Position numbers and translations under genes: made by a program | Notes under the pieces: model-generated | Told to the model about the DNA's origin: nothing | The model's input: the letters and a program-made list of their open reading frames with translations, nothing else | Database searches by the model: none | Part shown: piece after piece, positions 27,832 to 33,371 of the stretch | How the letters are laid out: every line of letters starts with the position of its first letter | Numbering within the stretch: the first letter of the stretch is position 1 | DNA from: Bacteroidales bacterium | Lineage (GTDB): Bacteria; Bacteroidota; Bacteroidia; Bacteroidales; UBA932 | Direction of reading: 5' to 3' | DNA length: 64,000 bases | NCBI GenBank assembly: GCA_016290835.1 | Contig: JAEEVG010000002.1 | Coordinates: 10,869 to 74,868, forward strand

Positions 27832-29910
27832 CTAGAGATTCTTGATCAGCCGGAGGAAGTTGTGACCGTCTTCCCGGTTGTAGGAGACTTCGTCCATGAT
27901 GCTGCGGACGATGTGGATGCCCAGTCCGCCGATGGGACGCTCTTCCAGCGGAAGGGTCGTATCCACTTCGGCCACCTGGGTGGGATCGAAAGGCCGTCCG
28001 CTGTCGGTGATATTGAAACAGATCTGGTGCTTGCGGATGATCGCCTCAATGTCCACGAGTCCCTCCGTGCCATCGGGATAGGCGTAGAGGATGACATTGG
28101 TCACGGCCTCTTCGAGGGCCAGGTTGAGGCTCATCGCCAGCGCCTGGCTGATGCCGGATTCCTCTGCGATGGTCTCGATGAAGTCGGCCAGCTGCGGGAT
28201 CTGCTGGATGTCGTTCTGCAGCAGGAGGTGTCGGTCGGTGATGCTCTCGGGATCACCGAGGAACTTGATGCTCAGCATCGTGAGGTCATCGCTCTGCGGC
28301 GCGGCCCCGACGAAAATGTGGACGGCCTCGTTGATGATAGCCACCTGCTCGCGGGCCGGTTCGCGGGAAATGGTCCGGGCGGTTGCCAGGAGCCGTTCTT
28401 CGCCGAAGAGTTCTTTCCGGGTGTTCTCGGCCTCGGTCAGTCCGTCGGTGTACAGGAACAGGGTCGCGCCCGACGGGACCATGAGTTCCTGCTGGGGGTA
28501 GCGCATCTGTTCGTCGATGCCGATCGGACAGTTCGGTCTCACATTGATCTTCCGGACGCCCTCTTCGGTCAGCAGCAGGGGTGCATTGTGCCCGGCGTTG
28601 CAATAGCGCAACAGGCCGGAGGTCAGGTCCAGCGCTCCGATGAAGAAGGTAACGAACATATTGCTCTCGTTGTCCTGAGACATCGATTCGTTCATCTGTG
28701 AGAGAATGCGTGCGGGGTTGGATTCGTGTCCGGAAACGGTGCGGAAGAGGCTCCGGGTCACGGCCATGACCAGCGAGGCGGGGATGCCCTTGCCGGAGAC
28801 GTCGCCGATGCAGAAGAACAGCCGGTCGTCGCGGATGTAGTAGTCGAACAAGTCGCCGCCGACCTCCTTGGCAGGCATCAGCGTGCCGAAGATATCGAAA
28901 TCGTGGCGGTCGGGATAGGGCGGGAAAAACTTCGGCAGCATCGCCATCTGGATGGCGCTGGCGATCTTGAGTTCATTTTCGATCTTGTCCTTGGAGTCGG
29001 ATACGGCCTTCAGCTTGCGCAGATTCCTCGCCGTCCGCTGGAGGATCAAGCCCAGCAAAAACAGACCTACGATTTGCAGCAGGAGCACGACGAAGCCCAC
29101 CCGCTTGGCATTTCGGTAGATCTCATCCTCGGGGATGACGATGGACATCTTCCAGCCGGTCTTTTCCATCAGGGTATCGTAGCGGATGGTTTTCGCGACG
29201 GTGAGCGTCTCGGCGGGGCAGGCCATTATCTGACCTTCCCGGCTGGTGAGCGTGCTGAAGGAGTCGGGATACACCTGGATGCCGACGATCTTCTCCGTCA
29301 GCCAGGCCAGGGAGAGATCCGCTCCGACCATTCCGACGATCCGGCCTTCCGGATCCCGCAGGGGCGTGGCGAAGGTGACCAGCATCGTCCGGCCGCCGCT
29401 CTCGTCATAGTACGGCTCGCTCCAATAATCTTCGCCCTGCTCCACGGCATGGATGTACCAGTCCGTCTGGAAATAATCGTGATCTTCGCTCCCCAGGACC
29501 ATCGGCTCATAGCTTCCGTCCGTGCGGCGGGCGAGGAGCGGCTCGTACCAATGGCCGAATTCCGGATAGTATTCCGAGGTGAATGCGACAGCGGCGTCGA
29601 TAATCACGGGATTGGTATCCAGCATCTGCTTCAGATTGGCCTCGAACTGCTCGGGCTTGTCCAATTTGTCCGTCAGCGACCAGGCCATGTCATGGGCGGC
29701 CTGCTCCACCATATTGGTCACTTTTTCGATCTCGAGGCGATTGATGACGAGCTCGCTCTCGGCACGTCTGTTGGCTTCTTCTTCAAGCCCCTTCTTGGAG
29801 AAAAAGAATTGAATCAGGGACGTAGCTTCCAGCAGGACGGCTGCGACCAGGAGCAGCTTCAATCCCTGGAGGGTGAACAGGCTTTTGAAGGATTCTTTGA
29901 CTCGGACCAT
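27832..29910 (-). CDS. Membrane Cache-domain sensor + SpoIIE/PP2C phosphatase + RsbW-like HATPase kinase fusion
   Basis: Two TMs flanking a dCache-like region (YWSEPYYDE); VGGDLFDY, IGDVSGKG, YTDGLTE, DDLT; EEAVTN, DSGRPFDP, GGLGIHIV. Confidence 0.88.
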   Translation of the reverse strand: MVRVKESFKSLFTLQGLKLLLVAAVLLEATSLIQFFFSKKGLEEEANRRAESELVINRLEIEKVTNMVEQAAHDMAWSLTDKLDKPEQFEANLKQMLDTNPVIIDAAVAFTSEYYPEFGHWYEPLLARRTDGSYEPMVLGSEDHDYFQTDWYIHAVEQGEDYWSEPYYDESGGRTMLVTFATPLRDPEGRIVGMVGADLSLAWLTEKIVGIQVYPDSFSTLTSREGQIMACPAETLTVAKTIRYDTLMEKTGWKMSIVIPEDEIYRNAKRVGFVVLLLQIVGLFLLGLILQRTARNLRKLKAVSDSKDKIENELKIASAIQMAMLPKFFPPYPDRHDFDIFGTLMPAKEVGGDLFDYYIRDDRLFFCIGDVSGKGIPASLVMAVTRSLFRTVSGHESNPARILSQMNESMSQDNESNMFVTFFIGALDLTSGLLRYCNAGHNAPLLLTEEGVRKINVRPNCPIGIDEQMRYPQQELMVPSGATLFLYTDGLTEAENTRKELFGEERLLATARTISREPAREQVAIINEAVHIFVGAAPQSDDLTMLSIKFLGDPESITDRHLLLQNDIQQIPQLADFIETIAEESGISQALAMSLNLALEEAVTNVILYAYPDGTEGLVDIEAIIRKHQICFNITDSGRPFDPTQVAEVDTTLPLEERPIGGLGIHIVRSIMDEVSYNREDGHNFLRLIKNL

Positions 29911-29916
29911 AAGGGT

Positions 29917-31974: not shown

Positions 31975-33063
31975 TCAAATAAGGTTCAGGGTTTCTGCTT
32001 GTGAATAAATGATTTGCGCCAGAGATTCGTTGCTCTCGGAGACGCCGTTGAGATGGTCGAACAAGGCCTTGAGTCCCGGCTTGCCGCCCCCGCGGCGCAG
32101 AATGGCGACGATGCAGAGGTTCTGAAGGGCCACCGCGGAGGTGATGATGTCGATGTCGGTGGCGCCCAACTGGTATGAGGCCAGGCGGAAGGCGTCCTCC
32201 CGGCATTCTCTGACCATCTTGGCCACATCGCCCAGGGTATTCATCCCCAGGTCCTTGAGGATGGGGAGGTAGTGCTGGAGCGAGACCTCCTGGATCTCCG
32301 CCTGATTGAGGGCCGCGATCCGGTGGTTGAGGGCGTCGAAAGGTTGCAGGGCGAGATAGCTCTTGAACGTGTCGCCGTCCAGGGCGACTTCTTCGATGCG
32401 CCCGTCCGCCACGAGGGCCTGGACGCGCCGGCGGTAGTCCGTGATGCCGTTGCGGATGAGGCAGAATTGTTCGTCGGCCAGTTCGAGCATCCCGGCCAGG
32501 CGGTTCATCTGGCGGAGATATTCCTTGGGGATCTCCACGCCGGATTTGTAGCCGGAATCGTGGTAGAGCGTGGCCCAGACGTGCTGCAGGGAGGTGCGGA
32601 TCTGGAGTTCGAAGCGGATCTCGTTGATTTCAGGAAAATCGGGATCCTGGTACAGCCGCTTGGGGATGCGGCAGATGTAATGGAGGGAATTGTAGCCGAA
32701 ACTGTCGAGCTGGTGCATCTTGCGCTTGTCCACGGAGTTCTCCCGGTCGATCTCGAAAAGGTTCTCCGCCATGGCCGCGATCTTCTCTACGTCATCGCTG
32801 TAGAACGTGATGACCCGGACGCCGAGCAGGTCGGTGATGTCGCGGGCGGTGGCGTATTTGTTGCCTTTGAGCTCGAGTTTGCCGGCCAGGCTCCGCTCCT
32901 CCTTGACCCGGGCTTCCGTCGCCGTGACCATGAGTTTCTTGGCGGCGATGTCTCCCCGGATGATGGAGAGGGCGATCTCCTTCATCTTCTCAAGGGCAGG
33001 ACACATCTGCCGGTACTCGTCCAGCAGAATGCTCCCGTGCAGGTCCAGACCGTAATCTTCCAT
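31975..33063 (-). CDS. RelA/SpoT-type small alarmone synthetase with C-terminal extension
   Basis: RVKEERSLAGK, DITDLLGVRVI, GYNSLHY, ELQIRT, QHVWA..HD.GYK; no HD, TGS or ACT domains. Confidence 0.88.
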   Translation of the reverse strand: MEDYGLDLHGSILLDEYRQMCPALEKMKEIALSIIRGDIAAKKLMVTATEARVKEERSLAGKLELKGNKYATARDITDLLGVRVITFYSDDVEKIAAMAENLFEIDRENSVDKRKMHQLDSFGYNSLHYICRIPKRLYQDPDFPEINEIRFELQIRTSLQHVWATLYHDSGYKSGVEIPKEYLRQMNRLAGMLELADEQFCLIRNGITDYRRRVQALVADGRIEEVALDGDTFKSYLALQPFDALNHRIAALNQAEIQEVSLQHYLPILKDLGMNTLGDVAKMVRECREDAFRLASYQLGATDIDIITSAVALQNLCIVAILRRGGGKPGLKALFDHLNGVSESNESLAQIIYSQAETLNLI

Positions 33064-33371
33064 TAAGAATCCTGGATCTCGAACAGGTTGTAGAAGCCGG
33101 TCATCAGGAAGACCTGGCGAATCTCTTCGCGGATGTTCTTGATGATCACCTTTCCTCCCTTGCGGGCAGTCTCCTTGCGGATGCCGAGCAGAATGCGCAG
33201 ACCGGAACTGCTGATGTATTCGAGATCGCTGCAGTCCAGCACAATCTCCTTGTCAGCGTTGTCCAGCAAGGGCTGGATGTCCTTGGAGGCTTGCAGGGAG
33301 GCCGGGGTATCGAGCCGTCCTGCAAGCGTGCAGAGCAACCCGGTGCCGTTTTCTTTGATTGTGATTTCCAT
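33063..33371 (-). CDS. STAS-domain anti-sigma factor antagonist
   Basis: GRLDT, LDCSDLEYISSSGLRILL (phospho-acceptor Ser), VFLMTGF. Confidence 0.92.
   Translation of the reverse strand: MEITIKENGTGLLCTLAGRLDTPASLQASKDIQPLLDNADKEIVLDCSDLEYISSSGLRILLGIRKETARKGGKVIIKNIREEIRQVFLMTGFYNLFEIQDS

Follow-up and report, generated by a model that had tools for sequence, protein, structure and literature searches.

In a 64,000-nt stretch of DNA from a Bacteroidales bacterium (contig JAEEVG010000002.1 of assembly GCA_016290835.1; the whole stretch is hereafter called the window), we analysed a cluster of five minus-strand open reading frames (ORFs) at positions 27832-33371 that encode, in gene order, a STAS protein, a small alarmone synthetase (SAS), a cytidylate kinase-like (CMK-like) P-loop protein, a fusion of an HD hydrolase with an APH-like kinase, and a fusion of a Cache sensor with SpoIIE-type phosphatase and RsbW-type kinase domains. 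Counted from STAS, the ORFs follow one another at spacings of -1, +1, -1, and +6 nt, the corresponding junction sequences being TAATG, TGAtATG, TAATG, and TAAacccttATG. At 33405-33412, 34 nt upstream of the STAS ATG, the minus strand carries TATCTTTG, a -7 promoter box of the Bacteroidota type and the single minus-strand copy of the TANNTTTG consensus between 27832 and 33412; zero copies occur inside the cluster, and the next one, at 27796-27803, stands in front of the downstream tRNA-Ser gene. The five genes, their spacing, the domain calls, and the single -7 box given in a preliminary description of this DNA, made from the sequence alone, were borne out by ORF, Pfam/NCBIfam, junction, and promoter-box reading. 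The exact window sequence is also present in a metagenome-assembled genome (GCA_016648415.1) and in a JGI metagenome.

Homologous loci were gathered by scanning one genome per species (GTDB) with an SAS alignment, which yielded 306 confirmed loci. Counts per 80 refer to the best 80 of these 306, onto whose six-frame ORFs eight domains of the window proteins were mapped by phmmer, and percentages of loci carrying a given gene refer, for genes on the same strand, to the subset of 54 loci with complete flanks (6 kb or more on each side of SAS).

The first and last genes of the cluster encode the parts of a partner switch. STAS (33063-33371, minus strand) is a 102-aa single-domain protein of the anti-sigma-antagonist type (Pfam STAS, E 3.6e-18; TIGR00377, 72.9 bits against a cut-off of 53.45), and its motif Y-I-S-S-S-G-L, which across the family takes the form Y-[IT]-S-S-[SQ]-G-L, aligns with the [MI]-D-S*-[ST]-G-L phospho-site of SpoIIAA/RsbV. 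Residues S54, S55, G57, and L58 were invariant among 61 family members, with Ser55 as the predicted phospho-acceptor. The last gene (27832-29910, minus strand) encodes a 692-aa protein in which MCP-like PDC/dCache_1, SpoIIE, and HATPase_c_2 domains are joined. Its Cache/PDC sensor domain (29146-29643, minus strand; Pfam MCP-like_PDC_1 81.5 bits, dCache_1 45.4 bits) is flanked by two hydrophobic segments, residues ~17-38 and ~270-291, which a hydrophobicity scan picked out as predicted transmembrane helices; because these segments bracket it, the Cache domain is predicted to be extracytoplasmic, in agreement with the sensor that the preliminary description had placed there. Amino-acid-binding dCache domains carry R-x-W-Y, and at this position the protein reads T-D-W-Y, so that an amino-acid ligand is not indicated by this reading of the sequence. 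The PP2C/SpoIIE serine phosphatase domain follows (residues 361-550; 28261-28830, minus strand; Pfam SpoIIE 179.5 bits), with metal-binding Asp residues (GGD353, GD370VSG, TD489G, and D541D542) that were invariant in 50 sequences, and the protein ends in an RsbW-type GHKL serine kinase domain (residues 566-690; 27841-28215, minus strand; HATPase_c_2 91.5 bits, with RsbW and SpoIIAB NCBIfam matches) whose N-box (E600/N605), G1 (D636/G638), and G2 (G661/G662/G664) residues were invariant in 58 sequences. The locus therefore holds a single-domain STAS protein with a phosphorylatable Ser, an RsbW-type kinase with its N, G1, and G2 boxes, and a PP2C phosphatase with its metal-binding Asp residues. 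The sigma factor on which such switches act is missing from this set: as the preliminary description had stated for the cluster itself, no sigma-factor gene was found, either within 10 kb of the cluster or as a recurrent neighbour among the 80 loci.

The second gene (31975-33063, minus strand) encodes the 362-aa SAS, with the RelA_SpoT domain over residues 52-175. Its catalytic domain (residues 1-195; 32479-33063, minus strand) has a RelP/RelQ-like fold and scored 63.6 bits against Pfam RelA_SpoT (cut-off 27). The motifs RxK..S..K, DxxGxR, GYxSxH, ExQxRT, and HxxxYK are all intact, and all 16 residues that we followed through 81 sequences (R52, K54, S58, K62, D78, G81, R83, Y124, S126, H128, E152, Q154, R156, H168, Y172, and K173) were invariant. 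No HD, TGS, or ACT domain was found in the protein, as is characteristic of a short RelA/SpoT homologue (RSH). The nearest solved structures by sequence were Staphylococcus aureus RelP and Bacillus subtilis RelQ/YwaC (E 2e-11 to 5e-8), while CapRel, a toxic SAS that modifies tRNA, was matched at E 0.43; likewise, an AlphaFold 2 (AF2) model of the protein (pLDDT 89) gave Foldseek TM-scores of 0.75-0.85, relative to the target, to RelQ and RelP, with CapRel ranking far below. In PADLOC, the SAS domain matched the candidate system PDC-S33 at 54.6 bits, a match to the generic SAS domain. The 2011 survey of RSH proteins listed the SASs of Fibrobacter solely as unplaced 'divRel' and listed no SAS for Bacteroidia.

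The remainder of the protein, residues 196-362 (31978-32478, minus strand), is a mostly helical C-terminal domain with no Pfam match. When it was modelled alone (AF2, pLDDT 89.3), no significant fold match was found in the PDB (Foldseek best E 2.2, TM-score <0.3). Just 101 clusters were recovered when 1.84 billion representatives were searched exhaustively with HMMER. Among the full-length hits, those that we checked, mostly ~350-370 aa long, place this domain after an SAS domain; many of the other matches were short fragments, and at least two (P0246 and P0334) were not SAS proteins. The C-terminal domain is thus specific to this family and is a candidate docking or regulatory domain.

The fourth gene (29917-31317, minus strand) encodes a 466-aa fusion that Pfam and NCBIfam resolve into HD_4 and APH/TIGR02172. 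The HD domain (residues 1-190; 30748-31317, minus strand; Pfam HD_4 68.5 bits) is of the small alarmone hydrolase (SAH; Mesh1/RelH) type. Its closest PDB chains were the stand-alone HD-domain proteins 4yf1, 7qoe, and 7qoc (E 1e-21 to 5e-18), followed by the N-terminal domains of Rel/RelA and by MESH1, and the metal-binding and catalytic residues R27, H37, H61, D62, E65, D66, D128, and N132 were invariant in 68 sequences. SAHs are single-domain proteins; in the window the domain is fused to the kinase, and in 61 related loci it stands alone. The APH-like kinase domain (residues 191-466; 29920-30747, minus strand) scored 235.1 bits against TIGR02172 (cut-off 228.2) and 70.5 bits against Pfam APH. 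Because the ATP-binding Lys, the HGDLxxxN loop, and the DxG Asp (K224, H352, D354, N359, and D371) are kept in all 48 sequences compared, the domain is predicted to be an active kinase. Single-sequence and profile searches of the PDB gave only weak matches, with methylthioribose kinase (E 0.004) at their head, too weak to assign a substrate. ARAGORN also placed a 94-nt tRNA-Gly(UCC) on the plus strand at 31168-31261, antisense to the HD-APH gene; the Rfam tRNA model finds none there, and the call is almost certainly a false positive.

The third gene (31317-31973, minus strand) encodes a 218-aa P-loop protein of the 'cytidylate kinase-like' family PF13189 (Pfam Cytidylate_kin2 156.9 bits). It falls below the thresholds for true cytidylate kinases (PF02224, 19.9 against 26 bits; TIGR02173, 38 against 102), and its P-loop, G-[ST]-G-G-R-x, has no Walker lysine and departs from the canonical Walker A form GxxGxGK[ST]. 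Its nearest structural relatives are the structural-genomics entries 3hdt and 3fdi, neither of them characterised; a weak kinase match was returned by PADLOC, and the gene occurs in 7 of the 80 related loci. This protein is a rare, lineage-specific accessory from an uncharacterised family. Accordingly, the re-phosphorylation of nucleoside monophosphates that the preliminary description had built into its scheme is unsupported, because the gene on which it depended is such an accessory and has a non-canonical P-loop. The same exception applies to its statement that all catalytic motifs look intact, which held for the invariant residues of STAS, SAS, HD, APH, PP2C, and the RsbW-type kinase and did not hold for the CMK-like P-loop.

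The preliminary description had staked its proposal beforehand on the co-occurrence of these genes in other genomes, and the outcome was strongly positive. By their labels, the 80 loci comprise 14 from Fibrobacter/Fibrobacterales, 13 from Paludibacteraceae, 5 from Bacteroidaceae, 3 from Prevotellaceae/Prevotella, and ~42 from other Bacteroidales/Bacteroidia, together with single loci labelled Akkermansia, Limiplasma, and 'uncultured bacterium' that may be binning errors; judging from isolate and sample names, the apparent origin of most is the ruminant or horse gut. Per 80 loci, SAS was accompanied by HD in 68 (in 7 of them as an HD-APH fusion), by STAS in 60, by the RsbW-type HATPase in 57, by SpoIIE in ~49, and by APH in 47, and among the 54 complete-flank loci HD was present in 81%, STAS in 74%, HATPase in 70%, SpoIIE and APH each in 57%, and the CMK-like gene in 6%. 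Most loci have 4-7 of the genes, and the SAS-HD pair occurs alone in 14. We counted ~30 distinct gene orders, the commonest being Cache-SpoIIE-HATPase / STAS / SAS / APH / HD; others were SAS / HD / APH / Cache-SpoIIE-HATPase / STAS, SAS / HD / HATPase / STAS, HATPase / STAS / SAS, and HD / SAS. The order HATPase / STAS / SAS is a minimal trio that parallels RsbW, RsbV, and the sigma factor. Because the gene set recurs around SAS homologues in dozens of species and in many orders, the arrangement is far beyond chance, and because the linkage survives so much shuffling as well as the fission and fusion of parts, the set is best regarded as a functional module, one that is widespread in herbivore-gut Bacteroidales and Fibrobacter and is uncharacterised.

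Adjacency statistics split the cluster into a switch half (sensor-PP2C-kinase and STAS) and a nucleotide half (SAS, APH, and HD). STAS directly adjoins SAS in 67% of the loci that have both and is the switch component most frequently found next to it, while HD and APH are adjacent or fused in 95% of the loci that have both, in either order where they are separate. When all other neighbouring ORFs of the 80 loci were clustered, no recurrent sigma factor, transcription factor, or other regulator emerged. Two other genes did recur. A CX5R phosphatase of ~270 aa (Y_phosphatase3, PF13350; motif HCAQGKDRTG) lies on the same strand in 34 of the 80 loci and is a commoner accessory than the CMK-like gene, which in other species it supplants or supplements; it usually accompanies the APH-like kinase, and it may follow HD, follow STAS, or separate STAS from SAS (e.g., L006:12023-12838). 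In 15 loci, a gene fusing SBP_bac_3 with a permease (BPD_transp_1) stands beside the module (e.g., L001:5946-7406) and may hint at the type of ligand or nutrient involved. Neither the CX5R phosphatase nor the SBP_bac_3-permease gene is present in the window.

Natural fusions also link the components. A search with HMMER using the SAS C-terminal domain retrieved a 521-aa protein in which HATPase_c_2, RelA_SpoT, and the C-terminal domain are fused (three clusters, P0249, P0342, and P0343) and a 528-aa protein that fuses RelA_SpoT, the C-terminal domain, and HD_4, and HD-APH fusions make up >120 clusters at 90% identity. The kinase-SAS fusion is not an assembly artefact, since its three clusters derive from different contigs in assemblies of both NCBI and JGI; its loci (L084:8001-9566 and L089:2282-3847) adjoin MFS transporter genes and have no STAS or HD nearby. 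Read as Rosetta-stone evidence, the HATPase-SAS, SAS-HD, and HD-APH fusions tie the switch to the nucleotide enzymes, and together with the conserved linkage they support the earlier proposal that the switch and the synthetase/hydrolase pair constitute one module. A distant member of the family, 26% identical over the C-terminal domain, has the order SAS / HD / STAS. Other distant SAS relatives, 30-35% identical and with the C-terminal domain included, are solitary genes in surroundings of the conflict type: one on an ENA contig (L086) lies beside TIR-LRR and LRR proteins, those on megaplasmids of Bacillus thuringiensis and B. cereus (L090/L091) lie near LXG toxins of the type VII secretion system and an AAA ATPase/DUF4435 pair, and the relative on B. 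cereus pN435-1.1 is split into two ORFs. No phage record covered >=80% of SAS, and the one plasmid record that did was the 35% identical, solitary Bacillus sequence; a mobile-element origin was rejected, as no close full-length copy of SAS was found among phage and plasmid records.

The surroundings of the cluster in the window are housekeeping in character (ileS, a DksA/TraR-type zinc-finger gene, lspA, luxS, a choloylglycine-hydrolase-family gene, and tRNAs, with both flanking tRNA-Ser genes confirmed by Rfam), and no mobile-element genes were found within 10 kb. The zinc-finger gene (zf-dskA_traR; 26536-26934, plus strand) lies between ileS (23168-26533) and lspA (26936-27514) in an operon convergent with the alarmone cluster. 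In Proteobacteria, DksA acts with (p)ppGpp as a co-factor of RNA polymerase; the proximity may be coincidental. Between the convergent lspA operon and tRNA-Ser(UGA) there is a perfect-centred palindrome at 27581-27664, with 42-nt arms that are 83% complementary and have no spacer, which is probably a bidirectional terminator; no further copy of its core motif was found elsewhere in the window. Upstream of and divergent from the cluster are the choloylglycine-hydrolase-family (CBAH) gene and luxS (33667-35538, plus strand), followed at 35553-37439 by an ORF for a 628-aa lipoprotein-like protein with no Pfam match.

We interpret the five genes as one operon encoding a self-contained signalling module in which the output of the partner switch is a dedicated alarmone synthetase/hydrolase pair in place of a sigma factor, and we give this explanation, operon included, a probability of roughly 0.55. 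The assignment of SAS as the output is favoured by the minimal HATPase/STAS/SAS trios, the kinase-SAS fusion, the distant SAS/HD/STAS locus, and the lack of any linked sigma factor; which proteins bind one another, in which direction regulation runs, what nucleotide is made, and what ligand is sensed are inferred from the genes. In the scheme we propose, the Cache domain would sense an external ligand and shift the balance between the PP2C phosphatase and RsbW-type kinase domains of its own polypeptide, and this balance would set the phosphorylation state of STAS Ser55. STAS and the kinase domain would then exchange partners with SAS, which would take the place held elsewhere by a sigma factor or a diguanylate cyclase. 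Either the kinase domain holds SAS until dephosphorylated STAS displaces it, or dephosphorylated STAS binds SAS directly, and by either route the synthesis of a (pp)pGpp-type alarmone would be switched on or off, so that STAS phosphorylation may gate the activity of SAS or of HD. The Mesh1/RelH-type HD domain would degrade the SAS product and keep the signal transient and not toxic. The APH-like kinase, which belongs with the synthetase and hydrolase, could provide a second phospho-input on a module protein or could act on a small molecule.

Several observations weigh against this interpretation. SAS and HD occur with no switch nearby in about one-quarter of the loci, including most of those from Fibrobacter, and the HATPase-SAS fusion is limited to one lineage in which it is solitary and has no STAS. 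Two frequent components, the near-core APH-like kinase (57%) and the CX5R phosphatase of other loci, have no step to perform in a simple on/off model of alarmone control. Mimicry of a sigma factor by the SAS C-terminal domain, which would have allowed an RsbW-like kinase to hold SAS, was considered and rejected, since the Foldseek comparison with the PDB showed no sigma-like fold. Nor can this domain be demonstrated to be a docking site, because it is equally conserved whether or not a switch is linked: C-terminal and N-terminal domain identity stood in a ratio of 0.92 at loci with a switch and 0.90 at loci lacking one, which is no signal, in a comparison that is confounded by phylogeny. Finally, transcript support for the operon is thin. 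In metatranscriptomes of an anaerobic digester and a bovine sample, contigs match portions of the STAS, SAS, and CMK-like genes; one of them, at 31254-31454, crosses the junction between the CMK-like and HD-APH genes, which is weak evidence but consistent with an operon.

Other explanations were weighed as well. The switch could be a conventional one acting on an unlinked sigma factor or regulator, with SAS, HD-APH, and the CMK-like protein as co-expressed cargo and alarmone levels controlled transcriptionally. By sequence, the STAS, PP2C, and RsbW domains are indeed ordinary members of the anti-sigma/antagonist families, and both the division of the cluster into two sub-modules and the many SAS-HD pairs that have no switch nearby are in keeping with such an arrangement. 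Co-expression alone, however, hardly explains a linkage maintained through ~30 rearrangements, nor does it account for the HATPase-SAS fusions, the minimal trios, or the distant SAS/HD/STAS locus, and no sigma factor is linked to the genes in the window or recurrent at the 80 loci; we therefore consider an unlinked target unlikely. Chance adjacency of unrelated genes, for its part, is refuted, since SAS is surrounded by the same components, variously ordered, at most of the 80 species-level loci and fusions of them exist; we give it practically no credence.

The two remaining explanations differ from our interpretation in what SAS and its companions make, and we rate both as slightly less probable than an unlinked target. 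In one, the locus is a toxin-antitoxin, growth-arrest, or defence module: SAS would be a toxin that produces (pp)pApp or modifies tRNA, HD would be its type IV antitoxin, and the switch would license firing. An SAS adjoining an SAH is the layout of FaRel/ATfaRel (PMC7229694), and the PDC-S33 match as well as the conflict-type neighbourhoods of the distant solitary relatives (TIR/LRR proteins; the Bacillus megaplasmids with LXG toxins and AAA/DUF4435) point in this direction. Yet the catalytic domain lies much nearer to the non-toxic RelP/RelQ enzymes (E 2e-11 for RelP) than to CapRel, and on that comparison the protein does not belong or come closest to a validated toxic SAS (toxSAS) subfamily (FaRel, FaRel2, PhRel, PhRel2, or CapRel). 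Moreover, no close full-length copy is found in phage or plasmid records, the genomic context is one of housekeeping genes with no mobile elements, and an extracytoplasmic Cache sensor suggests an environmental cue over an intracellular phage cue. Membership in a defence system as the primary reading was rejected, given that PADLOC matches just the generic SAS domain and gives a weak kinase match for the PF13189 protein, and matches no further component of the module. In the other explanation, SAS, APH, and HD (elsewhere also the CX5R phosphatase and the PF13189 protein) would synthesise and degrade a phosphorylated nucleotide or metabolite of a non-canonical kind, in a pathway regulated by the switch. 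Its attraction is that the APH-like kinase and the CX5R phosphatase otherwise go unexplained: the APH-type fold, predicted to be active, ranks as near-core, occurs fused to HD in >120 clusters, and is next to or fused with it almost wherever both occur, Y_phosphatase3 recurs at varied positions in 34 of 80 loci, and the PDB protein to which the APH profile comes nearest, if only weakly, is methylthioribose kinase, which acts on a small molecule. Against this, the active sites of SAS and HD match those of (pp)pGpp enzymes residue for residue, and APH-fold proteins can be protein kinases, as a weak SrkA/YihE-type match of this domain recalls. A more elaborate circuit, in which ligand-gated dephosphorylation of STAS frees or activates SAS, the APH-like kinase phosphorylates the alarmone further, and HD (elsewhere also the CX5R phosphatase) erases the resulting non-canonical messenger, seems to us a little more doubtful still; if it were true, gut Bacteroidales and Fibrobacter would own a private second-messenger system wired to an extracytoplasmic sensor.

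A module with an alarmone synthetase/hydrolase pair as switch output would differ from known systems in its combination of parts, each of which belongs to a known family; the novelty would lie in the RSH output of its partner switch. The module shares with RsbU/RsbV/RsbW and SpoIIE/SpoIIAA/SpoIIAB of Bacillus the STAS phospho-Ser motif, the GHKL RsbW-type kinase, the PP2C phosphatase, and intact catalytic residues. In contrast to those systems, the phosphatase and kinase are here fused in one membrane protein with an extracytoplasmic Cache domain, and what is conserved beside them is an alarmone synthetase/hydrolase pair, with no linked sigma factor. The catalytic folds and motifs of SAS and HD match those of RelP/RelQ and Mesh1/RelH, whereas RelP/RelQ have no counterpart of the private ~165-aa C-terminal domain, which is of no known fold, and the hydrolase of the module is fused to a kinase. 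To our knowledge, the controls described for (p)ppGpp-type synthetases are the ribosome and starved tRNA in the case of long RSHs, antitoxins in that of toxSASs, and transcriptional and allosteric regulation in that of RelP/RelQ, which we do not know to be regulated by any phospho-switch.

One other genomic neighbourhood brings similar parts together. In Mycobacterium tuberculosis, rv1364c (PAS-PP2C-RsbW-STAS) and rv1365c (RsfA, STAS) adjoin, as we take it from locus numbering, rv1366, an actRel-type SAS homologue, and we know of no functional link described between that switch and rv1366. Rv1364c and RsfA act on SigF, and Rv1366, which belongs to another SAS subfamily, is accompanied by neither HD nor APH. 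It is a predicted SAS that has been reported to be catalytically inactive (PMC8622095). The toxSAS pair FaRel/ATfaRel is alike in that an SAS is encoded beside an SAH able to erase its product (PMC7229694), while the module differs in a catalytic domain that is not close to known toxSASs, in its 4-7 genes with a signal-transduction front end, and in its chromosomal housekeeping context.

The closest parallel to the logic proposed here is found in SiaABCD and HptB-HsbR-HsbA-HsbD of Pseudomonas aeruginosa and in BgrSTUWV-BgrR of Sinorhizobium meliloti, where the diguanylate cyclases SiaD (via SiaC), HsbD (via HsbA), and BgrR (via BgrV) are under partner-switch control: a PP2C phosphatase and a kinase determine whether a STAS or STAS-like protein is phosphorylated, and this protein, depending on its state, controls the synthetase by direct binding (PMC8457831, PMC7647112). 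In those systems the output is a GGDEF cyclase that makes c-di-GMP, whereas here it would be an RSH-family pyrophosphokinase with a hydrolase and an APH-like kinase, the binding being proposed from the genes. Our literature search found no paper connecting an SAS or SAH with STAS or partner switching, in line with the preliminary description, which knew of no characterisation of the combination; the idea is nonetheless less unprecedented than was implied there, since partner switches already control diguanylate cyclases (PMC8457831). Besides this precedent, the preliminary description overlooked the near-core APH-like kinase, the SAS C-terminal domain, and the CX5R phosphatase.

If the interpretation of SAS and HD as the output of the switch is correct, a serine phospho-switch under an extracytoplasmic Cache sensor would constitute a new input route to (p)ppGpp-type signalling, and alarmone enzymes would join the short list of partner-switch outputs other than sigma factors. 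Bacteroidota carry STAS, PP2C, and RsbW genes for which no cognate sigma factor of the SigB/SigF type is known to us, and the module could help to explain their presence. The SAS C-terminal domain and the conserved HD-APH fusion offer concrete biochemical leads. In the organisms themselves, fibre-degrading bacteria that abound in the rumen and hindgut, such a module would place alarmone levels under the direct influence of gut chemistry.

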